A stretch of DNA of 40,227 bases. Source: a virus. This document shows positions 4,484 to 34,751 of the stretch, one piece after another. The notes under the pieces are model-generated. The model was not told the DNA's origin, did no database searches, and saw only the letters and a program-made list of their open reading frames with translations. The position numbers and the translations under genes are program-made. The stretch lies in UHGV virus genome UHGV-0148877; one strand, 5' to 3'. The stretch's first letter is position 1. Each line of letters starts with the position of its first letter.

Positions 4484-4586
4484 GTTAAATCTCCAGATAG
4501 TCGCAGCACCCGTTGCGCCGCATATCTGGTTATTCTATTACCTGAAAAACCACATATGGATAGAAAGGATGTAAATACGAATAGAT

Positions 4587-4603
4587 ATTACCTTTCGGGT
4601 AAT
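4587..4603. promoter_or_regulatory. Operator palindrome ATTACC-TTTCG-GGTAAT
   Basis: Perfect 6+6 inverted repeat, about 75 nt upstream of the SOS-regulated small gene; an upstream hybrid copy ATTACC-TGAAA-AACCAC lies at 4538-4554. Confidence 0.55.
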
Positions 4604-4639
4604 TTGCAAAACGTGCTGGATAGCAAACAAATTATTTGC

Positions 4640-4659
4640 TACTGTATAAATATACAGTT
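4640..4659 (+). promoter_or_regulatory. LexA (SOS) box TACTGTATAAATATACAGTT
   Basis: Perfect CTGT-N8-ACAG with AT-rich spacer and TA flanks (core 4642-4657), 23 nt upstream of the ATG at 4680. Confidence 0.7.
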
Positions 4660-4679
4660 ATTGCATGGAGAAGATTAAG

Positions 4680-4937
4680 ATGCAGCAGTATCACTATCCA
4701 CTGGAAGACGGATTTACCGAAAGGATTCACACGCCAGAAGGCGTCAGGTCACTGGTGGAGGGATCGCACTTGATGAAATTACTCCGGGATCTCGATAAGG
4801 ATGGATTTAATGTCGATGGCCCACTTGCCGAACTGACTGCACTGATTAACTACGTCACCAGCTCACAGATGTCTATGCAGGATCTGCAAACACATCTCGA
4901 CTATTGTGCCGAACAATTACGAAAACAAACCCGGTAA
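4680..4937 (+). CDS. Small SOS-regulated protein paralogous to the antirepressor C-terminal domain (candidate antirepressor)
   Basis: 85 aa from the ATG at 4680 (GGAGAAG RBS); LexA box directly upstream; aligns by eye (about 40% identity over about 40 residues) with the C-terminal about 70 aa of the Bro-N antirepressor at 6083-6769 (IHTPEGV/IHSPSGV, AELTALINYV/AELTTMFCYI, DLQTHLDY/DIQTHAEY). Confidence 0.5.
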   Translation: MQQYHYPLEDGFTERIHTPEGVRSLVEGSHLMKLLRDLDKDGFNVDGPLAELTALINYVTSSQMSMQDLQTHLDYCAEQLRKQTR

Positions 4938-4939
4938 AT

Positions 4940-4975
4940 TTAAAGGCCGCAAGAGCGGCCTATCGTTTCGCTTTG
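4940..4975. terminator. Bidirectional hairpin terminator between convergent genes
   Basis: AGGCCGC-AAGA-GCGGCCT hairpin flanked by A/T-rich runs on both sides, between the 4680-4937 (+) and 4960-5688 (-) genes. Confidence 0.5.
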
Positions 4976-5688
4976 TGCTCATCCCAGCACGTTTTGCACC
5001 ATGCCATTAAGCCGTCCGCATTTTGATTATTAGGGTAAAAGCTGGTTCGTTTTCTGCGGACATTACAAATTGGGCACCACTTCATATGGCGTGTATTCTT
5101 TGGGCCATCGAGACACCTTGCACACCACTTAGTCAATCCATCTGGATTTTTTGACGATTTCCTGAATTTTTCATATGGAAGGTTTATTCTGCATCGCAAG
5201 CACTGCTTGCTACCACTTGAAACTCTGTTAGCTGATTCTTCTTTTGGCGGCGATACAGAAGGTATTCTTGCTGGCTCTGATACTGCCTGAGGTGCTTTTT
5301 TAGATGACTGAGACGATATGTCATCACCAGGGAATCTTCCATGATATGCCGGACGCGTTGACACTCCAGGTGGAAGCTCAGCTGTAAACGGCTTTGGCTG
5401 AATCAGTTGCCTCTCTTTTGCTAACTCCTGCTGTTTATAATATGTCTGGATTACCGCACTATCATAAGCAGGAGGTGCGGAAATATTAGGCGCATTACCT
5501 CCAGTTTTTTGAAACTGAGTAGAGGTGTGTTCTATCACCTGTGTACGATTAATCGTTATCTCCCCATCTTCGGTCTTTATCGTTTTGTTATGATTAACGA
5601 CCGTACGATCAGAGATCTTAGTCTTGTTCTGGTTGATAACGTAAATAATCACCGCAACCACACCAACAACTATCCAGAAAACTTCCAT
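4960..5688 (-). CDS. Membrane-anchored protein with tandem Cys-rich (zinc-ribbon-like) C-terminal repeats
   Basis: 242 aa; N-terminal TM helix (VFWIVVGVVAVIIYVI), Pro/Ser-rich linker, then two repeats of C-x2-C ... DGL-x2-WC-x2-C (CLRC...DGLTKWCARC; CPIC...DGLMAWCKTC); AT-rich; no family recognised. Confidence 0.55.
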   Translation of the reverse strand: MEVFWIVVGVVAVIIYVINQNKTKISDRTVVNHNKTIKTEDGEITINRTQVIEHTSTQFQKTGGNAPNISAPPAYDSAVIQTYYKQQELAKERQLIQPKPFTAELPPGVSTRPAYHGRFPGDDISSQSSKKAPQAVSEPARIPSVSPPKEESANRVSSGSKQCLRCRINLPYEKFRKSSKNPDGLTKWCARCLDGPKNTRHMKWCPICNVRRKRTSFYPNNQNADGLMAWCKTCWDEHKAKR

Positions 5689-5707
5689 TGCTTTTCCTCA
5701 CAATAAC

Positions 5708-5724
5708 ATTACTTTAAAGGTAAT
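5708..5724. promoter_or_regulatory. Operator-like palindrome ATTACT-TTAAA-GGTAAT
   Basis: 9/10 core match, 20 nt upstream of the start of the minus-strand membrane-protein gene (5688). Confidence 0.4.
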
Positions 5725-5800
5725 ATCTTGCTTTCAGGTGATCAAGCGTTAAACGCAATCAACCAAATACGGTTGATTTTAATATTTCTTCGCGTTTATC

Positions 5801-5817
5801 ATTACCTTTGCGGTAAA
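5801..5817. promoter_or_regulatory. Operator palindrome ATTACC-TTTGC-GGTAAA
   Basis: Perfect TTACC-N5-GGTAA core in the divergent region between the membrane-protein gene and the antirepressor gene. Confidence 0.5.
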
Positions 5818-6082
5818 TTTACATCGCACTCCTCTTGTGCCATAGTAATCGGGCACTGGCAAAATCCAGTGCCGGGATTGGCGTCCCGAGTTACTACAGA
5901 GGCACATATGCCGCATAAGCGGTTTTTTTATGTGTAAAGCGCACCTATTCTATGGTGGGCTGTGTGGGGGCACCGAAAGGTGCGCCGGGTCCTTTGTAGC
6001 CGGTTACGCCAACCCTGCACAGTTCACCACCAACCGATTGGCGTCGGTAGTGGTGATTAACCTAACTACAAAGGTGATCGCT

Positions 6083-6769
6083 ATGACTGCTAACGTAACC
6101 CCATCTGTTTTTCATTTTGAATCAGAAGCAACCATTCGAGCCATTGTTATTGATGGAAATCCTTGGTTTGTTGCCAAAGACGTTATTAAAGCTCTTCAAC
6201 TGACAAACCCCACTATGTCAATAAAATCTCTTGATGATGATGAAAGGGCTAAATTTAACTTAGGCCGTCAAGGCGAAACCAATATTATCAACGAGTCAGG
6301 CCTCTACACACTGATCCTCCGCTGCCGCGACGCAGTGACACCAGGCACTATCCCCTACCGCTTTCGTAAATGGGTTACAGGTGAGGTTCTTCCTCAGATC
6401 CGCCGCACCGGAAGTTACATTAAAAACTCGCTCCCGCAGGAAGAACGCATAAAGATGGTTGCCGACCAGGTAGCCAACGCCACGGCGTCAGCAGTAATGC
6501 AGGCGATGAAGATAGAGAACAAAACCTACAGTGCCCCACTGAAGCCCGGCTACCGCAGCCTGATTCATTCGCCGTCTGGTGTTCTCGGCCTGACGGAGAA
6601 CTCACTGCTGATGAATCTGCTGAACCAGTTACAGGACGACGGGCACGACGTATCGGGCGCGGCGGCGGAGCTGACCACCATGTTCTGCTACATCGTCGGT
6701 GTGAGCAAATGCCTGCGTGATATCCAGACGCACGCGGAGTACATCAACGACAAGGCAGGGTTCTTCTGA
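6083..6769 (+). CDS. Antirepressor with Bro-N domain
   Basis: 228 aa from the ATG at 6083 (AAGGTGA RBS); N-terminus IRAIVIDGNPWFVAKDVIKAL matches the Bro-N pattern; C-terminal domain paralogous to the 4680-4937 product. Confidence 0.8.
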   Translation: MTANVTPSVFHFESEATIRAIVIDGNPWFVAKDVIKALQLTNPTMSIKSLDDDERAKFNLGRQGETNIINESGLYTLILRCRDAVTPGTIPYRFRKWVTGEVLPQIRRTGSYIKNSLPQEERIKMVADQVANATASAVMQAMKIENKTYSAPLKPGYRSLIHSPSGVLGLTENSLLMNLLNQLQDDGHDVSGAAAELTTMFCYIVGVSKCLRDIQTHAEYINDKAGFF

Positions 6770-6777
6770 CGGGCGGC

Positions 6778-6800
6778 GGCACAGGGATGTGCCTTTAAAT
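6778..6800 (+). terminator. Possible intrinsic terminator after the antirepressor gene
   Basis: GGCACA-GGGA-TGTGCC hairpin followed by TTTAAAT. Confidence 0.35.
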
Positions 6801-6813
6801 AATTCTGTACAGA

Positions 6814-6842
6814 TTGCAGACTGTGGGTGAATAGCGTACTAT
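6814..6842 (+). promoter_or_regulatory. Sigma70-like promoter (TTGCAG-17-TACTAT) overlapping an operator
   Basis: -35 TTGCAG at 6814-6819, 17-bp spacer, -10 TACTAT at 6837-6842; the palindrome at 6841-6857 overlaps the -10 and start region. Confidence 0.45.
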
Positions 6843-6857
6843 TACCTCAAGGGTAAA
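6841..6857. promoter_or_regulatory. Operator palindrome ATTACC-TCAAG-GGTAAA
   Basis: Perfect TTACC-N5-GGTAA core overlapping the -10 of the promoter that reads into the toxin-antitoxin-like pair. Confidence 0.5.
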
Positions 6858-6916
6858 CGGATTGGTTTCATTTTTATTAATCCGTGTAATGAACTTATGA
6901 GATATGAGGTAATGTC

Positions 6917-7096
6917 ATGCGAAACGAAAAATTGCAGATGCGTAGAGCGCAAGCTGCCGCAAGACGTTCTTTCAATGGAAGCGTAGAGTGCGTAAAAGTT
7001 ACTATGACAAAAGATCACGCAAGTCGCGTATCCCGCGCTTTCTTTGATTCTCGTAACAATAAGGAAAATTATGAGTTCGTCTGCGTCGCAGAATGA
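6917..7096 (+). CDS. Small basic protein, candidate antitoxin (below the ORF-track cut-off)
   Basis: 59 aa (MRNEKLQMRRAQAAARRSF...), ATG with GAGGTAAT RBS; overlaps the start of the downstream toxin-like gene by 26 nt, the usual antitoxin-toxin arrangement. Confidence 0.3.
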   Translation: MRNEKLQMRRAQAAARRSFNGSVECVKVTMTKDHASRVSRAFFDSRNNKENYEFVCVAE

Positions 7097-7616
7097 TAAA
7101 AATCAAATTGTCAGATATAAGGGTCGAGTATTGCATACGCAAAATTTCTCGGCCCTTTGTGCATCTGATCTTGAGCTGAAGAAAGTATCTGATGCCTTTA
7201 CCCAGTATTGGAAAACGGGATACCATCCATCTCTTGGTAAAGATGCTGCATTTGCTCGTCCGACAGAAATGCTTAAACTAAATGTCAGGCATACTCATGT
7301 CGATAACCAAGACTATATTCCAGAAGATAGTGATAAAAAACACACTGGTAAAAAATCATCTTGGGATGCATGGAAAAAAATAGCGTCTGTGCAAGTAAAA
7401 TGCATACCAACAAGTAATTGCTTTTTAGTTTATTCGGTAAATCACAATCGTGATGCGCTGGTTATGTTTTTTGTTGACGCAGATGCCCACAACATAACTG
7501 AGCAAGAAGAGTTTAAAGAGGCAGCAATCACTATCAGTTATCAATTCTTTGAGAAAACAAAAACAGAACCAATGCCTTTAGAAGAAGATCTTTTTTCTGA
7601 TAAATGGAAGGAATAA
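7071..7616 (+). CDS. YafO-like toxin-family protein (putative ribosome-dependent mRNA interferase)
   Basis: 181 aa from the ATG at 7071 (AAGGAAAA RBS); segments DAFTQYWKTGYHPSLGKDAAF, LKLNVRHTHV and CFLVYSVNHNRDALVMFFV resemble the conserved blocks I recall for YafO-family toxins; AT-rich; family assignment is from memory. Confidence 0.45.
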   Translation: MSSSASQNDKNQIVRYKGRVLHTQNFSALCASDLELKKVSDAFTQYWKTGYHPSLGKDAAFARPTEMLKLNVRHTHVDNQDYIPEDSDKKHTGKKSSWDAWKKIASVQVKCIPTSNCFLVYSVNHNRDALVMFFVDADAHNITEQEEFKEAAITISYQFFEKTKTEPMPLEEDLFSDKWKE

Positions 7617-7711
7617 GCCCGCGCCGCGGGCTTTTTTGTGGACGAAACAAAAGTCAGTGCTACACTCATTGACGCCACATTGAGGTGGATTATAGATGGA
7701 AATTTTTCACA

Positions 7712-7873
7712 ATGAAAAAAGCATTTGCTGCACTGTTCGTTTTGTTGTCTCTGGTAGCTTCAACTCAGGCCTTTGCCGGTCGTTGTCAGCACGACAGCGA
7801 TACTGCCGCTGACGGCTCCCGCTGCGGTGGGCGTTCTGCGGATTCCCGTCCGGGCGGCGGTGGCATTCGTTAA
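7712..7873 (+). CDS. Small secreted peptide (signal peptide plus about 31-aa Gly/Arg/Asp-rich mature part with 2 Cys)
   Basis: MKKAFAALFVLLSLVASTQAFA then GRCQHDSDTAADGSRCGG...; classical signal peptide with AFA-G cleavage site; followed at once by a hairpin terminator. Confidence 0.4.
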   Translation: MKKAFAALFVLLSLVASTQAFAGRCQHDSDTAADGSRCGGRSADSRPGGGGIR

Positions 7874-7900
7874 AAACAAGGCCGCGAAAGCGGCCTGTTT
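7872..7900. terminator. Bidirectional intrinsic terminator
   Basis: AAGGCCGC-GAAA-GCGGCCT hairpin with A-run upstream and T-run downstream, between convergent genes 7712-7873 (+) and 7903-8754 (-). Confidence 0.6.
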
Positions 7901-7902
7901 GA

Positions 7903-8754
7903 TCACTGTGCAGTTTTCGCTGATCGATTTTCAGCTCTAAATTCAAGAACCGTTTCAATATTTCTTTCCTTCAGCATATCAATAACATTTTTATTCATTT
8001 GACTATCACTGGTTAATAACTGGTAAACGTTGCTTCTCTCTTTATCAGAGTTTTCTTTAACAGCTGCTTTGCATGCCAAATGCTTATTGAAATTTTCTAC
8101 ATCGCTAGTACAGGAATTTACGGCTGCTGATGAAATATCAGACGCTGAAGAAACACCGTCATCCAAACGTTTTATAGCATTTTCTATACATGAGTTAAGG
8201 GAATAAACGACAACTGAGCGATACCCTTCAGACGCACACCATTCTAAATTTCTTGAAGGATCGAGTGGTTTTACTTCGCTGGATTGAATTAACTTGTCAA
8301 AAACTGACTTATATTCAATCTGTTTTTTATCTATAGCCCATACTTCAGTAGCTGATTTATAATTCCCCGTATGCCTATTAACATCAAATCCATGTTTTAT
8401 AAGCAAATCTGCCCATGAAAGATTTATTGATTCATTGTTATGAGGCCATTTTCCTGTCAGAACCGCCCCCATAGACCCCATATATCCGCCATATGATGGT
8501 ATAGCACCATGGCTCAGTAACTTCTCTGCAACCACAGGGCAATTAATTACATAAGAGGCGTAAAGCCCATTCCATAAAGCCCCTCTATAGTAATCGCCAC
8601 GATTAGGTTCTTTTAAGTCGATAGCCTTTGATAATTGTTCGCACGTTTTGCATGCATCAAAGTTATCCTTATTGCATTGCAATGAACTGGCAGCTGTAGG
8701 ATTTACAGAGACTATTGAAAGCACTATGCCAAAAAACAAATTTATTTTTTTCAT
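7903..8754 (-). CDS. Secreted Cys-containing protein of unknown function
   Basis: 283 aa; N-terminal signal peptide MKKINLFFGIVLSIVSVNPTAASS; about 8 Cys; strongly AT-rich relative to the structural genes; ATG 1 nt after the stop of the 1129-aa protein gene. Confidence 0.6.
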   Translation of the reverse strand: MKKINLFFGIVLSIVSVNPTAASSLQCNKDNFDACKTCEQLSKAIDLKEPNRGDYYRGALWNGLYASYVINCPVVAEKLLSHGAIPSYGGYMGSMGAVLTGKWPHNNESINLSWADLLIKHGFDVNRHTGNYKSATEVWAIDKKQIEYKSVFDKLIQSSEVKPLDPSRNLEWCASEGYRSVVVYSLNSCIENAIKRLDDGVSSASDISSAAVNSCTSDVENFNKHLACKAAVKENSDKERSNVYQLLTSDSQMNKNVIDMLKERNIETVLEFRAENRSAKTAQ

Positions 8755-8755
8755 C

Positions 8756-15467: not shown

Positions 15468-15931
15468 TATTTTCTCTCCATGTGAAATCTGTGGAAATTA
15501 AGACCAAGAGCACCATAAGGCGCGGCCTCTTCAAGCCTGAATCCAAGCCAGTGCAGCCATGCTTTGGCAACATGGTTTCGCTCGTCGACGTAGTTTTCCA
15601 GGCGCGGATAAATTGCCAGCATCTGCTGCAATACCGGGCGGCAGTGGCGCAGAAATGTCTTCTGATATTTTTCAATACGGCTTGTCCCGACCAGCCATGG
15701 CGTACCATTGCCACCGATCATTGACGCCGGAGATACACCAAACATGGTTACCAGTTCTCCGTTCGCAAATCCTGACCAGGCCATAGTCGCAGTGCGCAGA
15801 CCAACACGCAGCGCATCTTCGGTAGTCATCAGCGATACCGCATACAGTTCGTCAATATCAGCCTGACGAACATCCGGCAAAATCATCTGAAGATGCTCTT
15901 CGGTTGCGGGAATAATTTGAACATCGATCAT
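15467..15931 (-). CDS. Hypothetical virion-module protein
   Basis: 154 aa ORF tightly packed (overlapping start/stop) within the structural operon; no family recognised. Confidence 0.45.
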   Translation of the reverse strand: MIDVQIIPATEEHLQMILPDVRQADIDELYAVSLMTTEDALRVGLRTATMAWSGFANGELVTMFGVSPASMIGGNGTPWLVGTSRIEKYQKTFLRHCRPVLQQMLAIYPRLENYVDERNHVAKAWLHWLGFRLEEAAPYGALGLNFHRFHMERK

Positions 15932-19720: not shown

Positions 19721-20158
19721 TTAACCAGTTACTTTTGAGCGGATCGGATACGGCGTATTGGCATCAACATCAAGACTGATACCAGCAGTGAATTCGCCAG
19801 CCGTTAGTGGGCCAGTTGCGACGGAGTAGTTAACACGCAGATATCGCTGAACACCGGCAGGCACCTTTGCAGAAACAACTCGTTTACCTGCTGTCAGGGC
19901 GGTCTTTGCCAGTGCGCCACTATCATAAATAGTGGTCCATGAGCTGTTATCCTCACTCGTCTGCAACTGGATGTTTACAGTTGCATCACCGCTTGCCGCG
20001 GCGGCTGTGTTAACCAGCGCCCAAAACTCAAGCGGGTAACCCACGCCGATATCACGACGTTTTCCGTCAATTGGACCGAGATCGATTACGTCAGTAGAAG
20101 CCGCGGTATTCGTAACCGCCTGAGCTTCGGAGAACATCAACAGTTTGTCGGTGATCAT
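19721..20158 (-). CDS. Putative capsid decoration / structural protein
   Basis: 145 aa, Ala/Thr/Gly-rich beta-type composition, directly downstream of the major capsid gene. Confidence 0.45.
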   Translation of the reverse strand: MITDKLLMFSEAQAVTNTAASTDVIDLGPIDGKRRDIGVGYPLEFWALVNTAAAASGDATVNIQLQTSEDNSSWTTIYDSGALAKTALTAGKRVVSAKVPAGVQRYLRVNYSVATGPLTAGEFTAGISLDVDANTPYPIRSKVTG

Positions 20159-20209: not shown

Positions 20210-21196
20210 TTACACCACGCGGGCTTCTGTTTCCAGAAGCGCATCAGTTTCACGGATTGGTACACCACGGAATGAAGTCCACCACTCGCCTTCAGTCTCT
20301 TTTACGCTGATAGCCAGAGATGTTTTCTCCAGAGATTGCAGATCAAGAGCCTGGCCTACAGTGCGGTTCATGTAGAACACCGGGCGGCCCATGCCACGGT
20401 TTGGAATGCGATGCAGTGCTTTAACCATCAACTTCGCAATATTTGCGGCAGAGGAAGGTTCTGAAAGATTGCTGACATTGATGTTTGCAATGCGAACAAC
20501 ATAACGCCAGTCACGCAGAGCAAGTCCGTTATCCCATTTGTAATGGGTGCGATAGCCTTCGTACTTGCCGCCATTAGCATCTTCCAGTGTCACCTGGCCT
20601 TTATCTTCCATCTGGATGCCAGCCTTCTGCCCTTTCGGGAAGATGCCATGCACGGTGTTTTCGCCCCACACCACTAACCAGATTGAGGTGTTATCTGTAC
20701 CCGTGCCACCAGCATCAATGATGTTCTGAGCATTACCCGCAGACAGGCTGGAATAGCGGGAGGACAATCCCATAAACTGCTGAGGGTTAACGCTGGAATC
20801 ACCATAAAACAACGTCTGCGCCATCTGCTGATTCATCGCTTCAATAAATGCGCGGTCTTCAGACAGGCGGAATTCGGCGGTATTACCGTTCAGATCAGCC
20901 AGTGACTTATCGACTTCAGCATAGGTTTCCAACATGCCAACGGAATCGGTGACCTGCACTGTGGTTGATTTGCTTGGTTGTACGCCATAGTTCAACAAAC
21001 GCCAGGTAGCTGAAGGTAAACCAGAACGAATGGTGGTTCGGTGTCCGGTAGGAAGGTTCCCTTCGACAAAAGGCATATCCTGAAGGATCGGGTTAGTTTG
21101 ACCGAGAAGCTCGATAATCTTATCGACTTTCCCGTTTGGATCGACGCGCTTACCCCAGTCAGCCAGCGTTAGCGCAGTTAAGCCTTTAACAGCCAT
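20210..21196 (-). CDS. Major capsid protein
   Basis: 328 aa; immediately follows the scaffolding gene; composition and size consistent with an HK97-fold podovirus coat protein. Confidence 0.8.
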   Translation of the reverse strand: MAVKGLTALTLADWGKRVDPNGKVDKIIELLGQTNPILQDMPFVEGNLPTGHRTTIRSGLPSATWRLLNYGVQPSKSTTVQVTDSVGMLETYAEVDKSLADLNGNTAEFRLSEDRAFIEAMNQQMAQTLFYGDSSVNPQQFMGLSSRYSSLSAGNAQNIIDAGGTGTDNTSIWLVVWGENTVHGIFPKGQKAGIQMEDKGQVTLEDANGGKYEGYRTHYKWDNGLALRDWRYVVRIANINVSNLSEPSSAANIAKLMVKALHRIPNRGMGRPVFYMNRTVGQALDLQSLEKTSLAISVKETEGEWWTSFRGVPIRETDALLETEARVV

Positions 21197-24385: not shown

Positions 24386-24474
24386 ATCAATGACTCCGTA
24401 CGCAATTAAATTATTACCAATTTAACCACATATGATTTATTTATCGTAGATAGTTGACATTTAACGCACAAATT

Positions 24475-24491
24475 ATTACCTTTCAGGTAAC
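24475..24491. promoter_or_regulatory. Operator palindrome ATTACC-TTTCA-GGTAAC, with a TTGACA hexamer at 24454-24459
   Basis: Perfect TTACC-N5-GGTAA core; same TTGACA-then-palindrome arrangement as at 34689-34733; oriented toward the plus-strand tRNA. Confidence 0.55.
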
Positions 24492-24812: not shown

Positions 24813-24889
24813 GTGGCATTAGCTCAGTTGGACAGAGCAACCGCCTTCTAAGCGGTTGGTCGCAGGTTCGAATCCTGCATGCCACGCCA
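24813..24889 (+). tRNA. tRNA-Arg (anticodon UCU)
   Basis: 77 nt folded by hand: 7-bp acceptor stem GTGGCAT/ATGCCAC, D stem GCTC/GAGC, anticodon stem ACCGC/GCGGT with loop CTTCTAA (anticodon TCT), T stem GCAGG/CCTGC with loop TTCGAAT, discriminator G, encoded CCA. Confidence 0.9.
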
Positions 24890-24975: not shown

Positions 24976-25052
24976 CAGCAGGACGCCATTGCGATGACTT
25001 CATGCTGTAAACCAGTACAGCCACGGAAGGCATAACTCATTGCTTCCAGTTC

Positions 25053-25076: not shown

Positions 25077-25205
25077 AAGGTGTGAATCATGAAATACGAA
25101 TTCGATGGATTTTGATGTCGTGACATGTCACAAACAGCCAGCCGATGAGCTGGCTTTGTTTTATCCTCACCAGAGGATATCAGCAGCATTATCCCCTCCA
25201 GAGGA

Positions 25206-26681: not shown

Positions 26682-27274
26682 TGATTACCATCCTGACGTT
26701 CTTTGAGTCGCTTCCTGGCTGCTGCTATGCGATCAGCAATTGTCACATTCACATTAACATCCAGACGTTCTTTGAACGCGTTGACATCAACATGCTTACC
26801 AATCAGTTCTAGGTTCTTCACCTTGTCAGGCCATTTAATTTTTTTGAGGATTGTCTCTATCGAATCCTCGTTCATGTTCATGATGGTCGATGACAGATCA
26901 AAGCCACTAAGCGTAGTGCGCCAGATTTTCGGCCACTCACGGATTGGTTTAAGGCTCCCATCGTCGTTGAGGATGTCGATCACGTCCATCTGGTCGATCT
27001 CCACCAGGCGCATGAGAACGTAATCAGCACTGACGCGCATTCGTTTGTTGCGCTCCTCCATCAACTCGGCAATCCGTTTCTGAATGCGTTCATCGCGCAT
27101 CATGACACTGGCTTTAACTGCCGCTGTATTTGGGGAGAATCCTGCGTTAATCGCTGCCTGAGTCTGGTTTTCAGGCGTTTTGATGTATGACTGGCAATAA
27201 GCCTCCTGCATTGCAGTTAGTGGCTTAAATTGCGTTGATTTGCGTTTATAGGTTTTAGGTTCAGCAGGCATCAT
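26678..27274 (-). CDS. Terminase small subunit
   Basis: About 198 aa from the internal ATG pair at 27274/27271 (MMPAEPKTYKRK...); immediately upstream of TerL and overlapping its start; the track's longer N-terminus would run through operator-like repeats. Confidence 0.6.
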   Translation of the reverse strand: MMPAEPKTYKRKSTQFKPLTAMQEAYCQSYIKTPENQTQAAINAGFSPNTAAVKASVMMRDERIQKRIAELMEERNKRMRVSADYVLMRLVEIDQMDVIDILNDDGSLKPIREWPKIWRTTLSGFDLSSTIMNMNEDSIETILKKIKWPDKVKNLELIGKHVDVNAFKERLDVNVNVTIADRIAAARKRLKERQDGNQ

Positions 27275-27290
27275 AACCACCGTGGTAATA

Positions 27291-27307
27291 GTTACCGTTG
27301 TGGTAAT
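27291..27307. promoter_or_regulatory. Operator palindrome GTTACC-GTTGT-GGTAAT before the late (terminase) genes
   Basis: Perfect TTACC-N5-GGTAA core; part of a 14-bp direct repeat (GGTA(C/A)CTATTACCAC x2 on the minus strand) between an early-operon terminator and the TerS start. Confidence 0.5.
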
Positions 27308-27316
27308 AGTACCATG

Positions 27317-27346
27317 CAAAATAAAGCCGCCATAGTTGGCGGCAGT
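27317..27346 (-). terminator. Intrinsic terminator between the early/nin-like block and the terminase genes
   Basis: On the minus strand GCCGCC-AACTAT-GGCGGC hairpin followed by TTTATTTTG. Confidence 0.5.
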
Positions 27347-27392
27347 ATTCAAAACCCATCAAATTCATCATGCATAATCTACTCGTGACATT

Positions 27393-27734
27393 TCACACTA
27401 TTAATTTCGTTTCATGCCAGCCTTTAGTCACCCAGCATTGCGAGTCACCATTACAAGGGCATGAATTAACTGGAACTCTCTCGCCGCACTTACCGCAACG
27501 TTTTCTGCTGATCGATTTTATACGCCCGCGCACGCGTGCATCATCCTGGCGGATCAGTAACGCTATATACTCACCAAATTCGTAAGGCGCACGCCCGGGG
27601 CGACGCGTGGCACAGTTACGCTCCAGCATTTCAATTTCCTGAGCATCAAGCACAATTTCCAGCTTACGCACACCAGATGCAGCTTGTCTTGCTCTCTGAG
27701 CGGCTTTGCGCTCTGCTGCTGATTTAGCCATCAA
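27393..27734 (-). CDS. Small regulator-like protein with Cys-rich zinc-finger-like C-terminus
   Basis: 113 aa; basic N-terminal region then CGKCGERVPVNSCPCNGDSQC; last gene before the terminator that precedes TerS. Confidence 0.45.
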   Translation of the reverse strand: MMAKSAAERKAAQRARQAASGVRKLEIVLDAQEIEMLERNCATRRPGRAPYEFGEYIALLIRQDDARVRGRIKSISRKRCGKCGERVPVNSCPCNGDSQCWVTKGWHETKLIV

Positions 27735-28801: not shown

Positions 28802-28804
28802 GGG

Positions 28805-29239
28805 TTAGTCCTCACCTTTCTGTTGCACTACCGGAACCGATAAATCGACGCACCAGGAGATAACGCCGAATTGATCATCGTTCTGCGCTTCACCCCAAAC
28901 GTAATATTTTGATCCTGGCCGACCCATTGCCGGGTCAAATACTTCTATGCCGCGTTCTGCCGTTAACGACATCAGAATCTGATGCAGGCCGCCTTTGATG
29001 TTCAGTGACGGAACGGTCAGGAAGTAAATAAACCCGTAAAGCAATTCGGCCTTGCGCTGGCTTCCGTAAAAATACGGGATTTTGTAATAATCCAGCGCGT
29101 CGTCGAGCCAGTCTGTTTTGTCGTGGAATTTCTGATGCCAGCGTTCCACTACCTCATCGACAGGTTGACCGGCAACCATTGCAACGCAGGTAGCCATGCA
29201 GGTGTTAAATGTTGGCTGCATTTGATGTTGAAGCATCAC
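28805..29239 (-). CDS. Hypothetical protein
   Basis: 144 aa ORF packed tightly in the nin-like block; N-terminal Cys cluster (NTCMATCVAM); no family recognised. Confidence 0.45.
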   Translation of the reverse strand: MMLQHQMQPTFNTCMATCVAMVAGQPVDEVVERWHQKFHDKTDWLDDALDYYKIPYFYGSQRKAELLYGFIYFLTVPSLNIKGGLHQILMSLTAERGIEVFDPAMGRPGSKYYVWGEAQNDDQFGVISWCVDLSVPVVQQKGED

Positions 29240-29931
29240 TCCCCCTTACCGATGCCGGCGGCGCGGTCTATGCGTTCGATTTCAGCCAGAATTAAAGCCC
29301 CTGCTTTTACCAGGTTGCGACGGCGGGCATTTGGCTTCCACCATGAAGCATCCCAAGGCCACCCCCACGGCTTGCCACCATTGCGGTTAACAGTTTCTGT
29401 TTCGTTTATGTAACAAACCGCCGCCATTGCCAGTTCCCCGTTGCAGTGTTCGTCATCATGCTCTGGCATCCACCCATCAACCGATTGTTGCCGCTGGCGC
29501 TCTGCTATCACATCCAGAATTGCAGGATTGAATGCACGCGCTTCCAGTTCAGCGATTCGCTTCTCTGCGGCTTCCAGCTCAACACGCAGCTTCCCTACAG
29601 TTAGCGCAATTTCCTCGTTCTCCTGATCGCGGCGTTTTATGTATTGCTGGTTTCTTTCCCGTTCATCCAGCAGCGCCAGCACGGTAGCTGGATTGGCTGC
29701 GGCGATGAATTCAGCATTGGCCTGCTGTTCCATTTGGAAATCTTCATAGAAACGGCTTTCTGGATGCGCTCCTTCAATTCTGCAAATAGGAATATATCCA
29801 GCAACCTCGCGATGAATTAGTGCATCATCACCATCAAATCGTCCCTCTCCATATTCGAGCGACCACACACCACACGTTGCTTTCTCTGCCTTTTCACGCA
29901 GTGCCTGATAGTCAATTGTCATTCTCGCCAT
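29236..29931 (-). CDS. Ead/Ea22-like protein
   Basis: 231 aa; central coiled-coil (KLRVELEAAEKRIAELEA) and C-terminal Trp-rich WGWPWDASWWKP, recalled as typical of Ead/Ea22-like proteins. Confidence 0.55.
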   Translation of the reverse strand: MARMTIDYQALREKAEKATCGVWSLEYGEGRFDGDDALIHREVAGYIPICRIEGAHPESRFYEDFQMEQQANAEFIAAANPATVLALLDERERNQQYIKRRDQENEEIALTVGKLRVELEAAEKRIAELEARAFNPAILDVIAERQRQQSVDGWMPEHDDEHCNGELAMAAVCYINETETVNRNGGKPWGWPWDASWWKPNARRRNLVKAGALILAEIERIDRAAGIGKGE

Positions 29932-30596
29932 CCTTCACAGTTGTAATCACTACAGCCTTCAAAATCATATGGGCTGTACTGCCAGGTTATTTTTCCGCAA
30001 TGCGGACAATTCCAACGCACCTTCCCGCTTCGCGACTTCTTTCTTCTGTTCTGCTCTTTCAACCAGTCAGGCATGACCAAACCTGCGCCCTGAACCATTG
30101 TTCTGCGATTAAAGTTATTGATATTGAACGTCCGGCGCTTTGCTGAATCAGCAATGGAAAATGGCAACCAAACTATTCCTGGTTCGTTTTTGTTGGCGAC
30201 GCTAAAGATGGTCGCTTTACTGAAGTCATCTGTTGGCAATCCACCGTGTTGAAGCCAGTAAACATCGTTGCCGTTCCAGCTACCTTTTTTGTAGGCCACA
30301 TACGCAGTGCAATCTGGCTCAATCAGGTTTTCTGTAGGGATGTACTGGCAATCAACGTGCCACACAGCCATTGCATCCACGATATCAGCGCAAACAGGCT
30401 GATCGATATCTCGACCACAATTCCAGGCTTTTTGGGCTTCTTCCAGCGTGTAAACATGAGCGCGATCGATATTAGAACTGTAACCATTGCCGTTATGGCA
30501 ATGGAATGAAGCGTTATTACCCACAGTTTCACGCAAGCACATCATGTAAAAGCGGTTATTCACTGGCTGCTTCCTTTGCGAATCTGTTCCGCCCAT
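29919..30596 (-). CDS. Hypothetical Cys-rich protein
   Basis: 225 aa (start uncertain; an internal ATG pair at 30545/30542 is an alternative); C-terminal WNCPHCGKITW...CSDYNCEGW zinc-ribbon-like motifs. Confidence 0.45.
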   Translation of the reverse strand: MGGTDSQRKQPVNNRFYMMCLRETVGNNASFHCHNGNGYSSNIDRAHVYTLEEAQKAWNCGRDIDQPVCADIVDAMAVWHVDCQYIPTENLIEPDCTAYVAYKKGSWNGNDVYWLQHGGLPTDDFSKATIFSVANKNEPGIVWLPFSIADSAKRRTFNINNFNRRTMVQGAGLVMPDWLKEQNRRKKSRSGKVRWNCPHCGKITWQYSPYDFEGCSDYNCEGWRE

Positions 30597-31141
30597 TCTT
30601 CAAGGGATTTCTCCGCATATTCACCAGACAGGCCATCAATCGGATGCGCTTCATTAGCCAACTCTTCTTTCGCTGACAAAATCATGCGTGTAACGTCGAA
30701 AACTTCACGCAAAGACTTATTGATAAATCCGTGATTGAACGCAGCAGCAAGACGGCTGGCGGTATAGTTAATCCCCTCGTTGCGTGCTTCCGCACGAATT
30801 TCAGACAGGAAAGCATCGGTGGCTGGGGTGTCTGATTGCATAGACTTTGCGCGATAATCATTCCACCCTCTTGCATATATGGGATTAACTTGCACCCCAT
30901 CTTTTACGCAATATGCCTGACCTCCACGGTTGATAACCTTGATTTCGTCCATAGCGCCAGACTTCAGCCCCGCATTCTCCGCCGCCAGCGCATTAGCACG
31001 CACCAGTTGCACTTCCAGTTGCGTTGCCAAATCGCTGATCAGCTTTGCCACACTACGCATATCAACGGCACCACATTCAGCTTTCAGTTCCGAAGCCATC
31101 TCATGCCCGGCGGCAACTAACCCTTTGATATTACTTTCCAT
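30560..31141 (-). CDS. Hypothetical protein
   Basis: 193 aa ORF in the nin-like block; no motif recognised. Confidence 0.45.
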   Translation of the reverse strand: MESNIKGLVAAGHEMASELKAECGAVDMRSVAKLISDLATQLEVQLVRANALAAENAGLKSGAMDEIKVINRGGQAYCVKDGVQVNPIYARGWNDYRAKSMQSDTPATDAFLSEIRAEARNEGINYTASRLAAAFNHGFINKSLREVFDVTRMILSAKEELANEAHPIDGLSGEYAEKSLEEWAEQIRKGSSQ

Positions 31142-31202
31142 CTTTACCCTCGCTTATCCACATAACTTATTGATTACATTGATAACTAAAAAGATCGTCG
31201 AT

Positions 31203-31547
31203 TCAGAACTTTTCGATGTTCCAGCCACCACCTGCTTTCTTTGGTTTAACCGTTACCCCGATGATTCGGAACGGATACTGATCTGCGGCGACTTTGGTTT
31301 TCACTCTGGCGTCGTCGGTCCAGAAACCTTTCACTTCGTGCAGTTCCATCTCGCCGGAGGCGAGCATCACAGCGAAATCGGGCGTATAAAACGTGTTATC
31401 AGCTAACCGCAGCTTGATACCCTCGAACCGATACCAGGCGATTTCCCCTGCACGTTTACGCTGCTCAAGGTGCTGGCAATACGCAGATTCTGTTTTGTTC
31501 ATCTGGCCTGTTTTGAGTCGACCAAGAGCCTGTATCTGTTTTCTCAT
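31203..31547 (-). CDS. Hypothetical protein (possibly DUF1064-like)
   Basis: 114 aa; first gene downstream of P; two operator palindromes lie at and just upstream of its start. Confidence 0.45.
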   Translation of the reverse strand: MRKQIQALGRLKTGQMNKTESAYCQHLEQRKRAGEIAWYRFEGIKLRLADNTFYTPDFAVMLASGEMELHEVKGFWTDDARVKTKVAADQYPFRIIGVTVKPKKAGGGWNIEKF

Positions 31548-31549
31548 GA

Positions 31550-31566
31550 TTTACCCCTGAGGTAAT
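31550..31566. promoter_or_regulatory. Operator palindrome TTTACC-CCTGA-GGTAAT
   Basis: Perfect TTACC-N5-GGTAA core abutting the start codon of the 31203-31547 gene. Confidence 0.5.
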
Positions 31567-31611
31567 TAAAAACCACATAAGACACGAAATCAATAGATTT
31601 TAGAATATTTT

Positions 31612-31628
31612 ATTACCCAGCAGGTAAT
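31612..31628. promoter_or_regulatory. Operator palindrome ATTACC-CAGCA-GGTAAT
   Basis: Perfect 6+6 inverted repeat with 5-bp spacer in the P to nin intergenic region. Confidence 0.55.
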
Positions 31629-31664
31629 CATCGAGACGTAAAAAAATGCGCTATCGCGCTGGTA

Positions 31665-32465
31665 TTACTTGATAAATCCTGCCGCCTTTCCCCGCCTGTA
31701 TTCCTCCATCAGCCACTGCGCCGGTGTTATTCCCCCAAGGGTGGCGGCGTTAGGCATGCACCCGAAACTTCGCCCTGGTGGATGGTAAACGTCTCTCCCT
31801 GTGTCCGGAGGTGTACTCATGGGTTCTGGCTTTGCCTGTATGCTGATCACCGGATCGGGTATCTGCTGTCCGGAAGCCACCTTTTTCGCCCAATCATCGA
31901 GCAGCCTGCGCGCGTGTTTCTCAACCTCAATCTCGCTAAGCTGGCGCTGATACATTGCACGGCGGGTATCACATACGACCCAGTACATAACCGGATGCCG
32001 CCACGGGAATCTTTCGGGACCACCAGGATATAAACTTTTTTCCTTGCTGTACCGGTGAAACTCCGCCATCACATCGTCAATGGTGACGCCAAGAACCATC
32101 TTGCTGTCTTTACACCACTTGATAAATTGCCCTGGCGACGGCCAGAACGGAGATTCACTGGCGCGGGCGTGGCGCATACCAGCAGAAACCTGTTCACGGG
32201 TTCGGATCCCCCCTTCGGCAAACGCAGCAATCCACTGCTGTTTTGCAGCAACTTCCTGCTCTGGCGTCTTCAGGTTGGTTACCACTGCCGCCGGAAACAG
32301 TTGTTTCAGCTGTTTGAAAAGGGCATCAACAAGCCTCTCTGCTGACATGTTCACTACGTTGTCATTGTTGGTGTACTGATGCTCATAACCTGACATGCGA
32401 GAAAGGGCTTCTCCGTCACGGTTTTGTATTGCGGTAAAAACGTTGTTCACAAGAAATCCTCCCAC
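31665..32465 (-). CDS. Replication protein P-like (DnaB helicase loader)
   Basis: 266 aa; block LFPAAVVTNLKTPEQEVAAKQQWIAAFAEGGIRTREQVSAGMRHARASESPFWPSPGQFIKWC closely parallels my recollection of lambda P. Confidence 0.75.
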   Translation of the reverse strand: MGGFLVNNVFTAIQNRDGEALSRMSGYEHQYTNNDNVVNMSAERLVDALFKQLKQLFPAAVVTNLKTPEQEVAAKQQWIAAFAEGGIRTREQVSAGMRHARASESPFWPSPGQFIKWCKDSKMVLGVTIDDVMAEFHRYSKEKSLYPGGPERFPWRHPVMYWVVCDTRRAMYQRQLSEIEVEKHARRLLDDWAKKVASGQQIPDPVISIQAKPEPMSTPPDTGRDVYHPPGRSFGCMPNAATLGGITPAQWLMEEYRRGKAAGFIK

Positions 32466-33262
32466 GCTTCAGGGCTGTTCCAGTGCGGAACGTTGTTATC
32501 AGGTAATGTTGATTGCTTCTGTCTGCTAATCTGCAGCCGCCTTGCCAGCTTCTGCTCCCACTGTGCCTGATGGTATGCCTTACCCTCAGCCATCCAGTAA
32601 ATTCTGAACTCTGCAAGTTCCTGTGCCGTTGGCAGACTGTCCAGGTAGATCCCCTGCAATGAGCTTTTCCGAAGAAAGTCATCTGATGGCTGCCATTTTT
32701 CATGCATGACAAATTTGCCTAATTGCCCTGGCCCACCAGGAGGAACAAAGTTATTCATCACGGCGTTGTTTGCGCCGGGGTCATGATGCACAGAATCCCC
32801 GTTTTTTGTCCTGCTCTCCCTCTCTTGGTTAAATGACTGGTTATATGACTGGTTCTGGATCCCGTTTTTGGGATCATTCAACATCCCGTTTTTGGGATCA
32901 TTCAACATCCCGTTTTTGGGTATATTCCCGTTTTCGGTAACATTACCGTTTTCGGGTTCATTGCCCCCCTCTCGGTTGCCTTTAATGTTCCCGTTTTTGG
33001 TTATATTAAGAGAGAAAACCCGCACTCTTTTTGTCGCTCCCTTTCTCTCCCCGGTATCTGAAATAAGCCCCATTTTCATGAGCGATATAAGTCCGGCCTG
33101 CACGGTTTTTTTATTCAGGCAAGTGTCTTTAACGAGGCGTTCTATGCTGGGGTAGCAGAGGTTATATTCATCGGCTCTGTCAGCCATCGAGAGCAGTATG
33201 AGCTTTAATGACGAGCTACCTGGATCTGTCTCCCAGGCCCAATCTGTTGCATGTCTGCTCAT
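32447..33262 (-). CDS. Replication initiator O-like protein (iteron-binding) with internal origin
   Basis: 271 aa; N-terminal HTH-like domain, central repetitive Asn/Gly-rich linker encoded by the iterons, C-terminal domain; directly upstream of and overlapping the P-like gene. Confidence 0.7.
   Translation of the reverse strand: MSRHATDWAWETDPGSSSLKLILLSMADRADEYNLCYPSIERLVKDTCLNKKTVQAGLISLMKMGLISDTGERKGATKRVRVFSLNITKNGNIKGNREGGNEPENGNVTENGNIPKNGMLNDPKNGMLNDPKNGIQNQSYNQSFNQERESRTKNGDSVHHDPGANNAVMNNFVPPGGPGQLGKFVMHEKWQPSDDFLRKSSLQGIYLDSLPTAQELAEFRIYWMAEGKAYHQAQWEQKLARRLQISRQKQSTLPDNNVPHWNSPEAWEDFL
32859..33005. repeat. Replication-origin iterons inside the O-like gene
   Basis: At least five direct repeats with core CCGTTTT(T/C)GG at roughly 24-bp spacing; the first two 24-mers ATCCCGTTTTTGGGATCATTCAAC are identical (32859-32882, 32883-32906). 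Confidence 0.7.
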
Positions 33263-33277
33263 GATTAATCTCCGCTA

Positions 33278-33478
33278 TCAGCTTGAATGTTGTGGGGAGG
33301 AATTAATCATGATCTGCTTAATCTCTGCCCTGATACGACGGTTTGATTCCATGGTGCACTCAACACAGTGTCCGTTGTAAACCCAGCGTTCACTGTCATG
33401 TCCGTGCTTACATGTTTTTCCGGTGTAGTAGCGTTTAAGTCCGCGCTTTGCGGCATCAATACGTGTAATGATTTCCAT
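33278..33478 (-). CDS. Small Cys-containing protein between cro-like and O genes (cII position)
   Basis: About 66 aa from the internal ATG at 33478 (MEIITRIDAAKRGLKRYYTGKTCKHGHDSERWVYNGHCVEC...); C-x3-H ... C-x2-C spacing suggests a zinc-binding motif. Confidence 0.4.
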   Translation of the reverse strand: MEIITRIDAAKRGLKRYYTGKTCKHGHDSERWVYNGHCVECTMESNRRIRAEIKQIMINSSPQHSS

Positions 33479-33557
33479 GGTAAGCCCTGTTATTAGTATT
33501 GGGATTACGGTTATTTTGTGCTGACACAAAAAAAAGATCAACCACATTTGGTTTTTT

Positions 33558-33574
33558 ATTACCTTTGAGGTGCG
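33558..33574. promoter_or_regulatory. Operator variant ATTACC-TTTGA-GGTGCG
   Basis: Perfect left half, variant right half (GGTGC, also seen at 33937-33942); upstream of the 33278-33478 gene. Confidence 0.35.
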
Positions 33575-33628
33575 AATAGATATGAAAAGACCGCCGGATG
33601 GCGGTCTACAGAGGGTTGTGGCTGGATA

Positions 33629-33859
33629 TCATGAGTAGAAGAAGTATGCCAGTTCTGCTTTTGAGCGCAGCCATTGTCTTGATTTACAGGCTTTAAAAAG
33701 CCCATCCATCAATACCTTACCTGGCATTTTGCGCTTACCTGTTAAGTGAGTCTGGATATAGTGACTCGTCGTTCCGGCTTCCTGTGCGAAGGCTTCACGC
33801 TCATCCGGAGTAAGTGCAAGCCAGTGCTTTTTGAAATCGAAATGTCCGTTATCGCTCAT
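33629..33859 (-). CDS. Cro-like early regulator (HTH)
   Basis: 76 aa; divergent from the repressor gene across a region with three operator palindromes; HTH-like segment EREAFAQEAGTTSHYIQTHLTG. Confidence 0.6.
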   Translation of the reverse strand: MSDNGHFDFKKHWLALTPDEREAFAQEAGTTSHYIQTHLTGKRKMPGKVLMDGLFKACKSRQWLRSKAELAYFFYS

Positions 33860-33894
33860 AGCTATTGCCTGATATTTATTTCAGATAATAAATA

Positions 33895-33959
33895 TTCACC
33901 TATAAGGTAACAAAAATCAAGGATAGTTACCCATGAGGTGCATTTACCTGTTGGGTAAT
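33895..33959. promoter_or_regulatory. Tripartite operator cluster between the cro-like and repressor genes
   Basis: Three palindrome copies: TTCACC-TATAA-GGTAAC (33895-33911), GTTACC-CATGA-GGTGCA (33926-33942), TTTACC-TGTTG-GGTAAT (33943-33959), in the 154-bp divergent intergenic region. Confidence 0.6.
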
Positions 33960-34013
33960 ATTGCTTTAAATTGAATCATCTTCTGATTCAGATATGAGGC
34001 GATTTTCCAGAAA

Positions 34014-34598
34014 ATGAAAAGTATCCAGGACGTCCGCAGGCAAAATCTCAACGACTTGATCGACCGTGAATTCAATGGTGTTCAGACGCGGATGGCTGAA
34101 AAACTTGGAACTCAGGCAAATCTGGTAAACCGCTGGGCTCTTGGCAAGAAGGTTATCGGCGACCAGGTTGCGCGAAAAATTGAAGCTGCCGCCAATAAAC
34201 CCCGTAACTGGCTTGATATCGATCGCTCGCTTTCTCAGGAAGGTTTTCAGCCTGTCGGCCCGAGTGATATAGGTCAGCTGGCTGCTCACAACCTGGAACG
34301 CTGGATGAGCGAAAGCCGCGACCTTTCAACGCAGGGAAAACTACACCGCGCATCCGGCGTCGCCCAGGTGACAATCAGCCGCCTGTTAAACAATGAGGTC
34401 AGCGTTTCCATTTCCACCCTGGAGAATGTTGCATCCGCATTCGGGCGTCATGGCTATGAATTACTGATTCACCCGCACGACCCTGCGACTATCAACTATG
34501 ACCGCTCGCGCTACGCATTGTTACCCGAAACCGAGAAAGCAAAGATCGAAAGTTACATTGAATTTGTCATCAACCAGAACGAAAAAAACAAACAATAA
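34014..34598 (+). CDS. Prophage repressor (CI-like, HTH; no S24 peptidase domain evident)
   Basis: 194 aa; N-terminal HTH (GVQTRMAEKLGTQANLVNRWALGKK) and a second HTH-like segment (ASGVAQVTISRLLNNE); divergent from cro-like gene; flanked by operator clusters; followed by a terminator. Confidence 0.7.
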   Translation: MKSIQDVRRQNLNDLIDREFNGVQTRMAEKLGTQANLVNRWALGKKVIGDQVARKIEAAANKPRNWLDIDRSLSQEGFQPVGPSDIGQLAAHNLERWMSESRDLSTQGKLHRASGVAQVTISRLLNNEVSVSISTLENVASAFGRHGYELLIHPHDPATINYDRSRYALLPETEKAKIESYIEFVINQNEKNKQ

Positions 34599-34616
34599 AA
34601 TCATATTTTTCAGTAA

Positions 34617-34643
34617 GTAAGCCGCCTTCTGGCGGCTTTTTTA
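34617..34643 (+). terminator. Intrinsic terminator after the repressor gene
   Basis: GCCGCC-TTCT-GGCGGC hairpin followed by TTTTTTATT. Confidence 0.65.
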
Positions 34644-34654
34644 TTGCCTACTCG

Positions 34655-34671
34655 ATTACCTAACGGGTAAT
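34655..34671. promoter_or_regulatory. Operator palindrome ATTACC-TAACG-GGTAAT
   Basis: Perfect 6+6 inverted repeat immediately after the repressor terminator. Confidence 0.55.
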
Positions 34672-34688
34672 TTTTTTAACTCATATCT

Positions 34689-34733
34689 ATTGACATCAAA
34701 CCAGATACGCATAATTATTACCTCAACGGTAAC
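34689..34733 (+). promoter_or_regulatory. Left-arm promoter region with TTGACA and operator ATTACC-TCAAC-GGTAAC
   Basis: TTGACA at 34689-34694; palindrome at 34717-34733; extra GGTAAC half-site at 34741-34746; precedes the first plus-strand early ORF. Confidence 0.5.
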
Positions 34734-34751
34734 AGACCGAGGTAACAAGTT

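Follow-up and report, generated by a model that had tools for sequence, protein, structure and literature searches.

The DNA analyzed here (hereafter, the window) is the 40,227-nucleotide stretch of virus genome UHGV-0148877, a Uetakevirus prophage. Its identity is 98% with phage phiv142-3 and, over the immunity region, about 98% with phage phiV10. It encodes a repressor, Rep, and a divergently transcribed Cro-like protein, and a 17-bp palindrome, ATTACC-N5-GGTAAT, recurs between these two genes and in many other intergenic gaps. The two genes and the copies of the palindrome, which are treated below as putative operators, are as follows (ORF, open reading frame; coordinates are those of the window).

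34014..34598, plus strand: rep, encoding a 194-residue non-cleavable repressor of the SPC32H/epsilon15 type (full-length match to PDB 5D50_A)
33629..33859, minus strand: cro-like gene, 76 amino acids, divergent from rep (phrog_35, "transcriptional repressor", E=9e-13)
4587..4603: site between the tail-fibre gene (minus strand) and ant (plus strand); perfect 17-mer, syntenic in all relatives, epsilon15 counterpart annotated at 19895-19911
5708..5724: site at the promoter of the cargo ORF 4960-5688 (minus strand); one mismatch
5801..5817: site over the -10 of the isrK-C4-Bro-N promoter; perfect core
6841..6857: site over the -10 (TACTAT/TACC) of a second cargo unit (6917-7096 and 7044-7616); perfect core, weak promoter (7/12)
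24475..24491: site between the gp3 late operon (minus strand) and an antisense tRNA unit (plus strand); perfect core, epsilon15 counterpart annotated at 2931-2947
27273..27289: terS operator 2 (ATAACCACCGTGGTAAT), in tandem with operator 1; one mismatch, ends 1 nucleotide (nt) before the terS ATG at 27271
27291..27307: terS operator 1, over an extended -10 (TGgTACTAT); perfect core, after the gp49-like terminator
31550..31566: proximal operator of the DUF1064/nin-like unit (minus strand), over the -10; perfect core
31612..31628: distal operator of the DUF1064 unit; perfect 17-mer, 62 bp upstream of the proximal operator
33558..33574: half-conserved site (ATTACCTTTGAGGTGCG) after the cro terminator and before a gp40-like gene; two core mismatches, BUCT711 syntenic site at 6031
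33895..33911: OR1 (TTCACCTATAAGGTAAC), degenerate, over the PR spacer and -35; aligns with ATTACC..GGTGAA sites of epsilon15, SPC32H, and BUCT711
33926..33942: OR2 (GTTACCCATGAGGTGCA), degenerate, abutting OR3; aligns with the strong site ATTACCGTTATGGTAAC of epsilon15 and SPC32H
33943..33959: OR3 (TTTACCTGTTGGGTAAT); perfect core, its left half TTTACC being the -35 of a candidate P_RM
34655..34671: OL2, upstream operator of PL; perfect 17-mer, just after the rep terminator
34717..34733: OL1, over the PL -10 and transcription start; perfect core

A search with the core TTACC-N5-GGTAA recovered 10 perfect copies in the window, starting at 4587, 5801, 6841, 24475, 27291, 31550, 31612, 33943, 34655, and 34717. 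These are exactly the 10 copies that a first-pass annotation of this DNA had reported. Dinucleotide-preserving shuffles of the window give an expectation of 0.02 copies, and none of 100 shuffles reached the count of 10. When the full 17-mer is considered, 12 sites have at most one mismatch, as the sites at 5708 and 27273 join the perfect-core set; the tandem site at 27273 was missing from the earlier list. All 12 strong sites lie in the non-coding part, which makes up 7.2% of the window (P ~2e-14). The first-pass annotation had also named weaker variants at 5708, 33558, 33895, and 33926. All of them are found at these places, with one core mismatch (5708 and 33895) or two (33558 and 33926), but the two-mismatch variants alone have no significance. 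The sites at 33558, 33895, and 33926, none of which would be significant by itself, are supported by synteny with relatives: 33895 and 33926 align with strong sites of epsilon15, SPC32H, and BUCT711, while the partner of 33558 is a site in BUCT711. Three other two-mismatch matches (1439, 12166, and 30486) were rejected as background; they lie in coding sequence, and their rate is that found in Escherichia coli K-12 (9 per 100 kb).

The first-pass annotation had noted that a common host-wide repeat would undo its reading. This possibility was rejected, since 100 kb of the K-12 genome contained no site with at most one mismatch. One perfect core was found in 75 kb of unrelated phage DNA. The PH444 record (PP350014.1, marked "UNVERIFIED", 115 kb, 44% GC over the whole record) consists of a Uetakevirus genome joined to about 75 kb of unrelated DNA, and at position 15903 in the unrelated part lies the 17-mer ATTACCCAGCAGGTAAT, identical to the window site 31612. 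This copy was rejected as an operator and is probably due to chance, because it lies inside an ORF of unrelated DNA without flanking homology. A search of the literature for the motif letters gave nothing but unrelated primer matches. The motif is real and strongly enriched, it lies in intergenic DNA, and it is no repeat of the host.

Conservation in Uetakevirus and prior annotation

Are these sites shared by other members of the genus? The window was compared with phiV10, phiv142-3, epsilon15, SPC32H, Enterobacter phage Tyrion, and Klebsiella phage BUCT711. The motif lies at syntenic positions in all seven genomes, which represent four host genera and have 10 to 12 sites each. In the RefSeq record of epsilon15 (NC_004775), seven protein_bind features are labeled "repressor / lysogeny", and all of them read ATTACC-N5-GGTAAT. 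They are given at 12 (12-27), 2931 (2931-2947), 19895 (19895-19911), 32479, 32554, 32616, and 35906, and lie before terS, before gp3, in the gap that separates the tail-fibre gene from gp19 (the Ant homologue), after the repressor gene (three sites), and before the unit following the replication genes (one site). The window sites occupy positions syntenic to these annotated repressor sites. The phiV10-type records examined have no operator annotation, and the operators are likewise left undefined in a 2022 paper on ZX5, a near-identical phage (PMC9782041).

Thus, the feature is correct but largely already known, since the epsilon15 record annotates it and the Rep-Ant mechanism of SPC32H has been solved; the novelty implied by the first-pass annotation does not hold. 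What is modestly new is the presence of operators on cargo units, a strict 62-bp pairing, and a spacer composition that differs between Rep clades. A second conserved motif at late promoters is also a new detail.

The palindromic sites are very probably operators of the master repressor Rep, dispersed over early, late, and cargo units. The first-pass annotation had proposed that one repressor acts on a symmetric operator at many units, with a logic like that of phage P1, and this proposal is supported by the epsilon15 annotation, by the homology of Rep to the SPC32H repressor, and by overlaps with -10 elements. Most sites overlap the -10 of a recognizable promoter (PL, the DUF1064 unit, terS, isrK-C4-Bro-N, two other cargo units, and the antisense tRNA unit), and the overlaps are conserved across genomes as sequence matches. 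The geometry lends good support to the predicted direct repression at PL, PR, the DUF1064 unit, terS, three cargo units, and the tRNA unit. Actual binding, its cooperativity, and the set of silenced promoters are what I infer from the sequence.

The cro-rep region and PL

The gap between the divergent cro and rep genes contains a three-part operator common to six genomes, and the three copies which had been noted there in the first-pass annotation correspond to OR1, OR2, and OR3. OR1 lies over a PR candidate (TTGTTA-17-TATTAT, minus strand, from 33913 to 33885). OR2 and OR3 are offset by 17 bp, and the same offset is found in epsilon15 (33340/33357), SPC32H, and BUCT711. OR3 provides the -35 of a candidate P_RM (TTTACC-17-TTAAAT, with the -10 at 33966-33971). 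This arrangement is kept in six genomes, and the assignment of the promoter as P_RM is a putative one. A seven-codon mini-ORF is present at 33994-34017 (plus strand, ATG at 33994), and its TGA overlaps the rep ATG (ATGA). The overlap may point to translational coupling of rep, a gene without a well-placed Shine-Dalgarno sequence.

On the other side of rep, the rep terminator (34619-34638) is followed by OL2 and OL1, in agreement with the two copies that had been placed right after the repressor terminator. PL consists of TTGACA (34690-34695), a 17-nt spacer, and AATTAT (34713-34718) running into OL1. It scores 10/12, and its architecture is kept across the genus. The PL -35 lies 18 nt downstream of the end of OL2. 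In six genomes, the paired operators of PL and of the DUF1064 unit are exactly 62 bp apart in 11 of the 12 pairs and 63 bp apart in the other pair. Since 62 bp corresponds to about six helical turns, one tetramer holding both sites would suit, and this is probably how the pairs are occupied.

The DUF1064, terS, tRNA, and lysis regions

The DUF1064 cassette repeats the plan of PL on the minus strand: operator 31612, TTGATT, 17 nt, TTTAAT, and operator 31550. Its promoter (TTGATT-17-TTTAAT/TACC, minus strand, score 9/12) is kept in six genomes. The right half of the proximal operator, GAGGTAAATCATG, doubles as the Shine-Dalgarno sequence of the DUF1064 gene. In the stretch 31545-31566 (minus strand), this right half reads GAGG/GGGGTAAATCATG as the Shine-Dalgarno sequence, and the start codon lies 2 nt past the operator, an arrangement also kept in six genomes. 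The half-conserved site at 33558 comes after the cro terminator, which runs from 33607 to 33588.

The terS operators follow the gp49-like terminator (27343 to 27326). The extended -10 with the operator, TGnTACTAT/TACC, is kept in phiV10, Tyrion, epsilon15, and SPC32H, and the epsilon15 counterpart is the annotated repressor site 12-27. The tandem pair is also present in phiV10 (86/104) and phiv142-3.

Because the motif overlaps -10 elements, and because TACCTT can itself act as a -10-like hexamer, one may ask whether the palindrome works as a promoter or activator element, with the gp49-like regulator (27393-27734) as one conceivable activator; a predicted transcriptional regulator (phrog_536) is encoded just upstream of terS. 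I consider this very unlikely. The partner sites 34655 and 31612 lie outside the core promoters. The motif is found at early, late, and cargo units as well as in the rep autoregulatory region, a distribution ill-suited to a stage-specific activator, and the late promoters are marked by a separate conserved motif, CATATGTGGTT, which is described in the last section.

Operator function is also preferred over a role of the palindromes as RNA or DNA structures (hairpins, terminators, or processing sites), a reading whose probability is close to nil. A stem of 4 to 7 bp is possible at each site, and epsilon15 has RNase III site annotations elsewhere in its genome. However, the hairpins are weak (-1.8 to -4.5 kcal/mol), a T-run follows only one of them, and many sites lie upstream of predicted transcription starts. 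What is conserved is the sequence and not the pairing: the half-sites do not vary, and at the outer position 7 of the 12 sites have uncompensated changes. A hairpin or terminator function was rejected on these weak stems, lacking T-runs, and uncompensated changes.

The antisense tRNA unit next to the gp3 operon contains the following gene.

24813..24889, plus strand: tRNA-Arg(tct), antisense to late genes (ARAGORN and Rfam)

The site at 24475 overlaps a plus-strand promoter (TTGACA-17-TACCTT, 9/12), which points at the tRNA unit and whose perfect -35, TTGACA, is kept in all genomes. The first-pass annotation had put this copy before the tRNA unit, which fits the direction of the promoter. The gp3 late operon has a separate conserved motif further downstream. 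No Rep-type site was found before the lysis cassette of the window, whereas phiV10, epsilon15, SPC32H, and Tyrion have one there. A different palindrome, AACCATAAATGGTT, lies at 1857-1870, upstream of the lysis cassette.

The antirepressor and cargo units

The region after the tail-fibre gene contains ant, its LexA box, and a cargo module.

4640..4659, plus strand: LexA box, perfect CTGT-N8-ACAG (CTGTATAAATATACAG at 4642-4657), overlapping the ant -10 (TACTGT)
4680..4937, plus strand: ant, encoding a small SPC32H-type antirepressor (PDB 5D50_E, E=3.6e-47)
5853..6769, plus strand: cargo module consisting of the isrK small RNA (5853-5929), the C4 antisense RNA (5948-6034), and a Bro-N gene (6083-6769)

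The ant gene is divergent from the tail-fibre gene and syntenic with the ant and tsp genes of SPC32H. Its ORF is annotated as 4665-4937, and judging from homologue lengths the true start is probably at 4680, behind GGAG. The ant promoter (TGGATA-17-TACTGT), which the LexA box overlaps, is conserved in relatives. The SPC32H Ant is described as LexA-controlled in PMC7380047. Site 4587 ends 13 nt upstream of the ant -35, much like OL2 with respect to the PL -35. In the first-pass annotation, ant was an SOS-regulated small gene. The LexA box over the promoter agrees with the regulation, but the identity has to be changed, as this gene encodes the real antirepressor Ant. The gene which had been called the antirepressor is indeed antirepressor-like but belongs to a second, Bro-N-type module behind the isrK and C4 RNAs.

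The cargo ORF 4960-5688, which is absent from phiv142-3, has a minus-strand promoter TTGATC-17-TACCTT (7/12). The promoter of the isrK-C4-Bro-N module is TTGATT-18-TATCAT/TACC (9/12). A near-identical site is present in phiV10 at 20496 (TTTACCTTTGCGGTAAA); only its first base differs from the window site 5801. Rfam detected isrK (an Hfq-binding small RNA) and C4 in tandem with 74 and 79.5 bits, and Pfam detected Bro-N (8e-20). The same module is found in Stx phage 1717 and APSE-7, where it lies inside the nin operon without its own promoter or operator, and the homology of these phages to the window starts only at isrK. By this comparison, the module appears to have been given its own Rep-type promoter here. 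In the second cargo unit, the product of 7044-7616 (plus strand) matches YafO_toxin with 23.2 bits, below the Pfam cut-off of 25, and its 59-residue partner (6917-7096, plus strand) matches only a PHROG of unknown function. The toxin-antitoxin-like pair of the first-pass annotation depends on this sub-threshold match. Other members of the genus also have an operator before each cargo unit of this region.

Which protein may read the sites

Rep matches the crystallized SPC32H repressor 5D50_A over residues 1-190 (E=4e-42), and its C-terminal half aligns with the SPC32H tetramerization domain, 5D4Z. Its sequence is that of the phiV10 and ZX5 repressors (100% identity). A Pfam search of Rep returned only helix-turn-helix (HTH) families and no Peptidase_S24, the domain expected of a RecA-dependent self-cleaving repressor. 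According to PMC9638917 (see also PMC9986798), the SPC32H Rep binds palindromic sites as a tetramer, which is disassembled by a tetrameric Ant. Over-expression of the ZX5 repressor abolished free phage and lowered the holin mRNA by 99.97% (PMC9782041).

Both Rep and the Cro-like protein probably read the sites, the latter during lytic growth. Rep is about 43% identical between the two clades of the genus, with 35 of the first 72 residues invariant, and the N-terminal HTH segment NLVNRW is among the residues invariant in both clades (alignment of five phages). Members of the genus share 78-84% identity in the Cro-like protein, whose HTH is invariant; the segment AGTTSHYIQTHLTG does not vary. 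Because both recognition regions are conserved, that of the Cro-like protein even more so, half-site conservation does not separate the two proteins.

The central N5 spacer differs between the clades. Its A/T fraction is 0.60-0.65 in the window, phiV10, phiv142-3, and Tyrion, and 0.85-0.94 in epsilon15, SPC32H, and BUCT711 (Fisher P=6e-7, for sites which are not phylogenetically independent). This difference tracks the Rep clades and is unexplained by genome GC. The spacer composition thus favors Rep as the reader, although it is suggestive only.

Could the Cro-like protein be the main reader of the dispersed sites, with Rep acting only at the cro-rep and PL regions? Its high identity and invariant HTH match the invariance of the half-sites better than the 43% identity of Rep, and it belongs to a PHROG family annotated as transcriptional repressor. 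This is nonetheless improbable, as the sites are annotated as repressor sites in epsilon15, the recognition segment NLVNRW of Rep is invariant too, paired sites 62 bp apart suit a tetramer such as that reported for Rep, and the spacer composition follows the Rep clades, between which the Cro-like protein barely differs. Moreover, operators are shared by both proteins in lambda-type switches, so that the Cro-like protein is more a complement to Rep than a rival.

With Rep as the reader, the spacer difference may reflect indirect readout and immunity specificity. Since the half-sites are identical in all members, specificity between the Rep clades would have to lie in indirect readout of N5. The spacer would then be an immunity code, of mixed composition in phiV10-type genomes and rich in A/T in epsilon15-type genomes. 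I propose only tentatively, and with some doubt, that this spacer-encoded immunity holds together with a wiring of the cargo in which the horizontally acquired units of the genus (the isrK-C4-Bro-N module, the YafO-like pair, ORF 4960-5688, and the antisense tRNA unit) would systematically stand behind a Rep operator each. If the wiring is true, the cargo would stay quiet in the lysogen and be switched on at induction, contrary to what is seen with classical morons.

Several points weigh against Rep as the direct silencer of all these units. No clear promoter is covered by site 4587, which lies ahead of the ant -35. At 24475, the promoter that the site overlaps is that of the antisense tRNA unit and not that of gp3. 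The evidence falls short of establishing direct repression of the gp3, tail-fibre, and lysis units, and the view that every late unit is directly repressed is not established either, because the window is without the lysis-cassette site of its relatives. The Cro-like protein is more conserved than Rep, and the conservation of the motif fits it equally well. Finally, the link from the operators to Rep comes from GenBank annotation and second-hand descriptions.

A proposed genome-wide switch

The preferred model, in which Rep is the master repressor, would work as follows. The genome would consist of about nine insulated units, several of them laid out in the order terminator, operator, and promoter. 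Rep would be a non-cleavable tetramer of the SPC32H/epsilon15 type with an N-terminal HTH. Since the operator lies over the -10 or the transcription start in most units, bound Rep would block RNA polymerase. The cro-rep region would form a lambda-like switch, with OR1 over PR, OR2 abutting OR3, and OR3 over the -35 of the candidate P_RM. Upon DNA damage, the small LexA-controlled Ant would be derepressed and would strip Rep from all operators at once, so that the early units, terS, and the cargo would be released together. One repressor would thus be a genome-wide switch combining a P1-like logic with lambda-like palindromic operators, and such a single-repressor arrangement would explain how a LexA-controlled Ant can release every unit at once.

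The closest known system is the Rep-Ant switch of epsilon15 and SPC32H. The 17-bp motif is the same and lies at syntenic places (terS, gp3, ant/tail fibre, PL, the cro-rep region, and the post-replication unit); Rep and Ant are homologous, ant has a LexA box, and paired sites are 62 bp apart. On the other hand, the window Rep belongs to the phiV10-type clade and is 42-45% identical to the epsilon15 and SPC32H Reps, OR1 and OR2 are degenerate in the window, the central spacers are less A/T-rich, and the site before the lysis cassette is missing. The window also has three extra operators on cargo units that are absent from epsilon15.

Phage P1 has an immI (c4-icd-ant) operon under the control of C1, a protein unrelated to Rep whose operators are asymmetric 17-mers. 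As in P1, one repressor would control many scattered units here, and a C4 RNA and an antirepressor gene lie behind a putatively repressor-controlled promoter, since isrK, C4, and the Bro-N gene are all downstream of the promoter and operator at 5801. In contrast to P1, the window site is a symmetric palindrome, its presumed reader Rep is of the SPC32H HTH type, and the analysis identified no homologue of C1. Induction would also differ, proceeding via a LexA-controlled Ant and not via Coi or Lxc. The likeness to lambda CI/Cro lies in the divergent orientation of the repressor and cro genes, whose intergenic gap contains three palindromic 17-bp operators, one over PR and one over the candidate P_RM -35, and in a second operator cluster at PL. 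Unlike in lambda, the repressor is not RecA-cleavable (according to the literature on the SPC32H type), it would be a tetramer rather than a dimer pair, and operators are also found at late and cargo units. The gp71-type stoperators of mycobacteriophages L5 and Bxb1 are dispersed in short intergenic gaps outside the immunity region, are asymmetric and orientation-dependent, and block elongation. The window sites resemble them in number and in their dispersal over short intergenic gaps outside the immunity region, but are symmetric and mostly lie over a -10.

The main value of this analysis is an operator and promoter map which is transferable to phiV10-type phages of E. coli O157, which are used as reporter and biocontrol chassis. 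The cargo operators, the 62-bp pairing, and the spacer difference bear on cross-immunity and phage engineering.

A second conserved motif at late promoters

For the tail-fibre and gp3 units, no clear sigma-70 promoter was found at the operator; a separate conserved motif is present there instead. The sequence CATATGTGGTT-N5-GGTAATA lies exactly upstream of gp3 (24413-24434, minus strand) and of the tail-fibre gene (4537-4558, minus strand). Its part ATGTGGTT is also found in the spacer of the DUF1064 promoter (31571-31578, minus strand) and after the 33558 site (33540-33547, minus strand). All four copies are intergenic and on the same (lytic) strand. This second motif may be a late-promoter or activator element. 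The five relatives that were checked all keep the gp3 copy, and in epsilon15 a copy precedes the lysis cassette.

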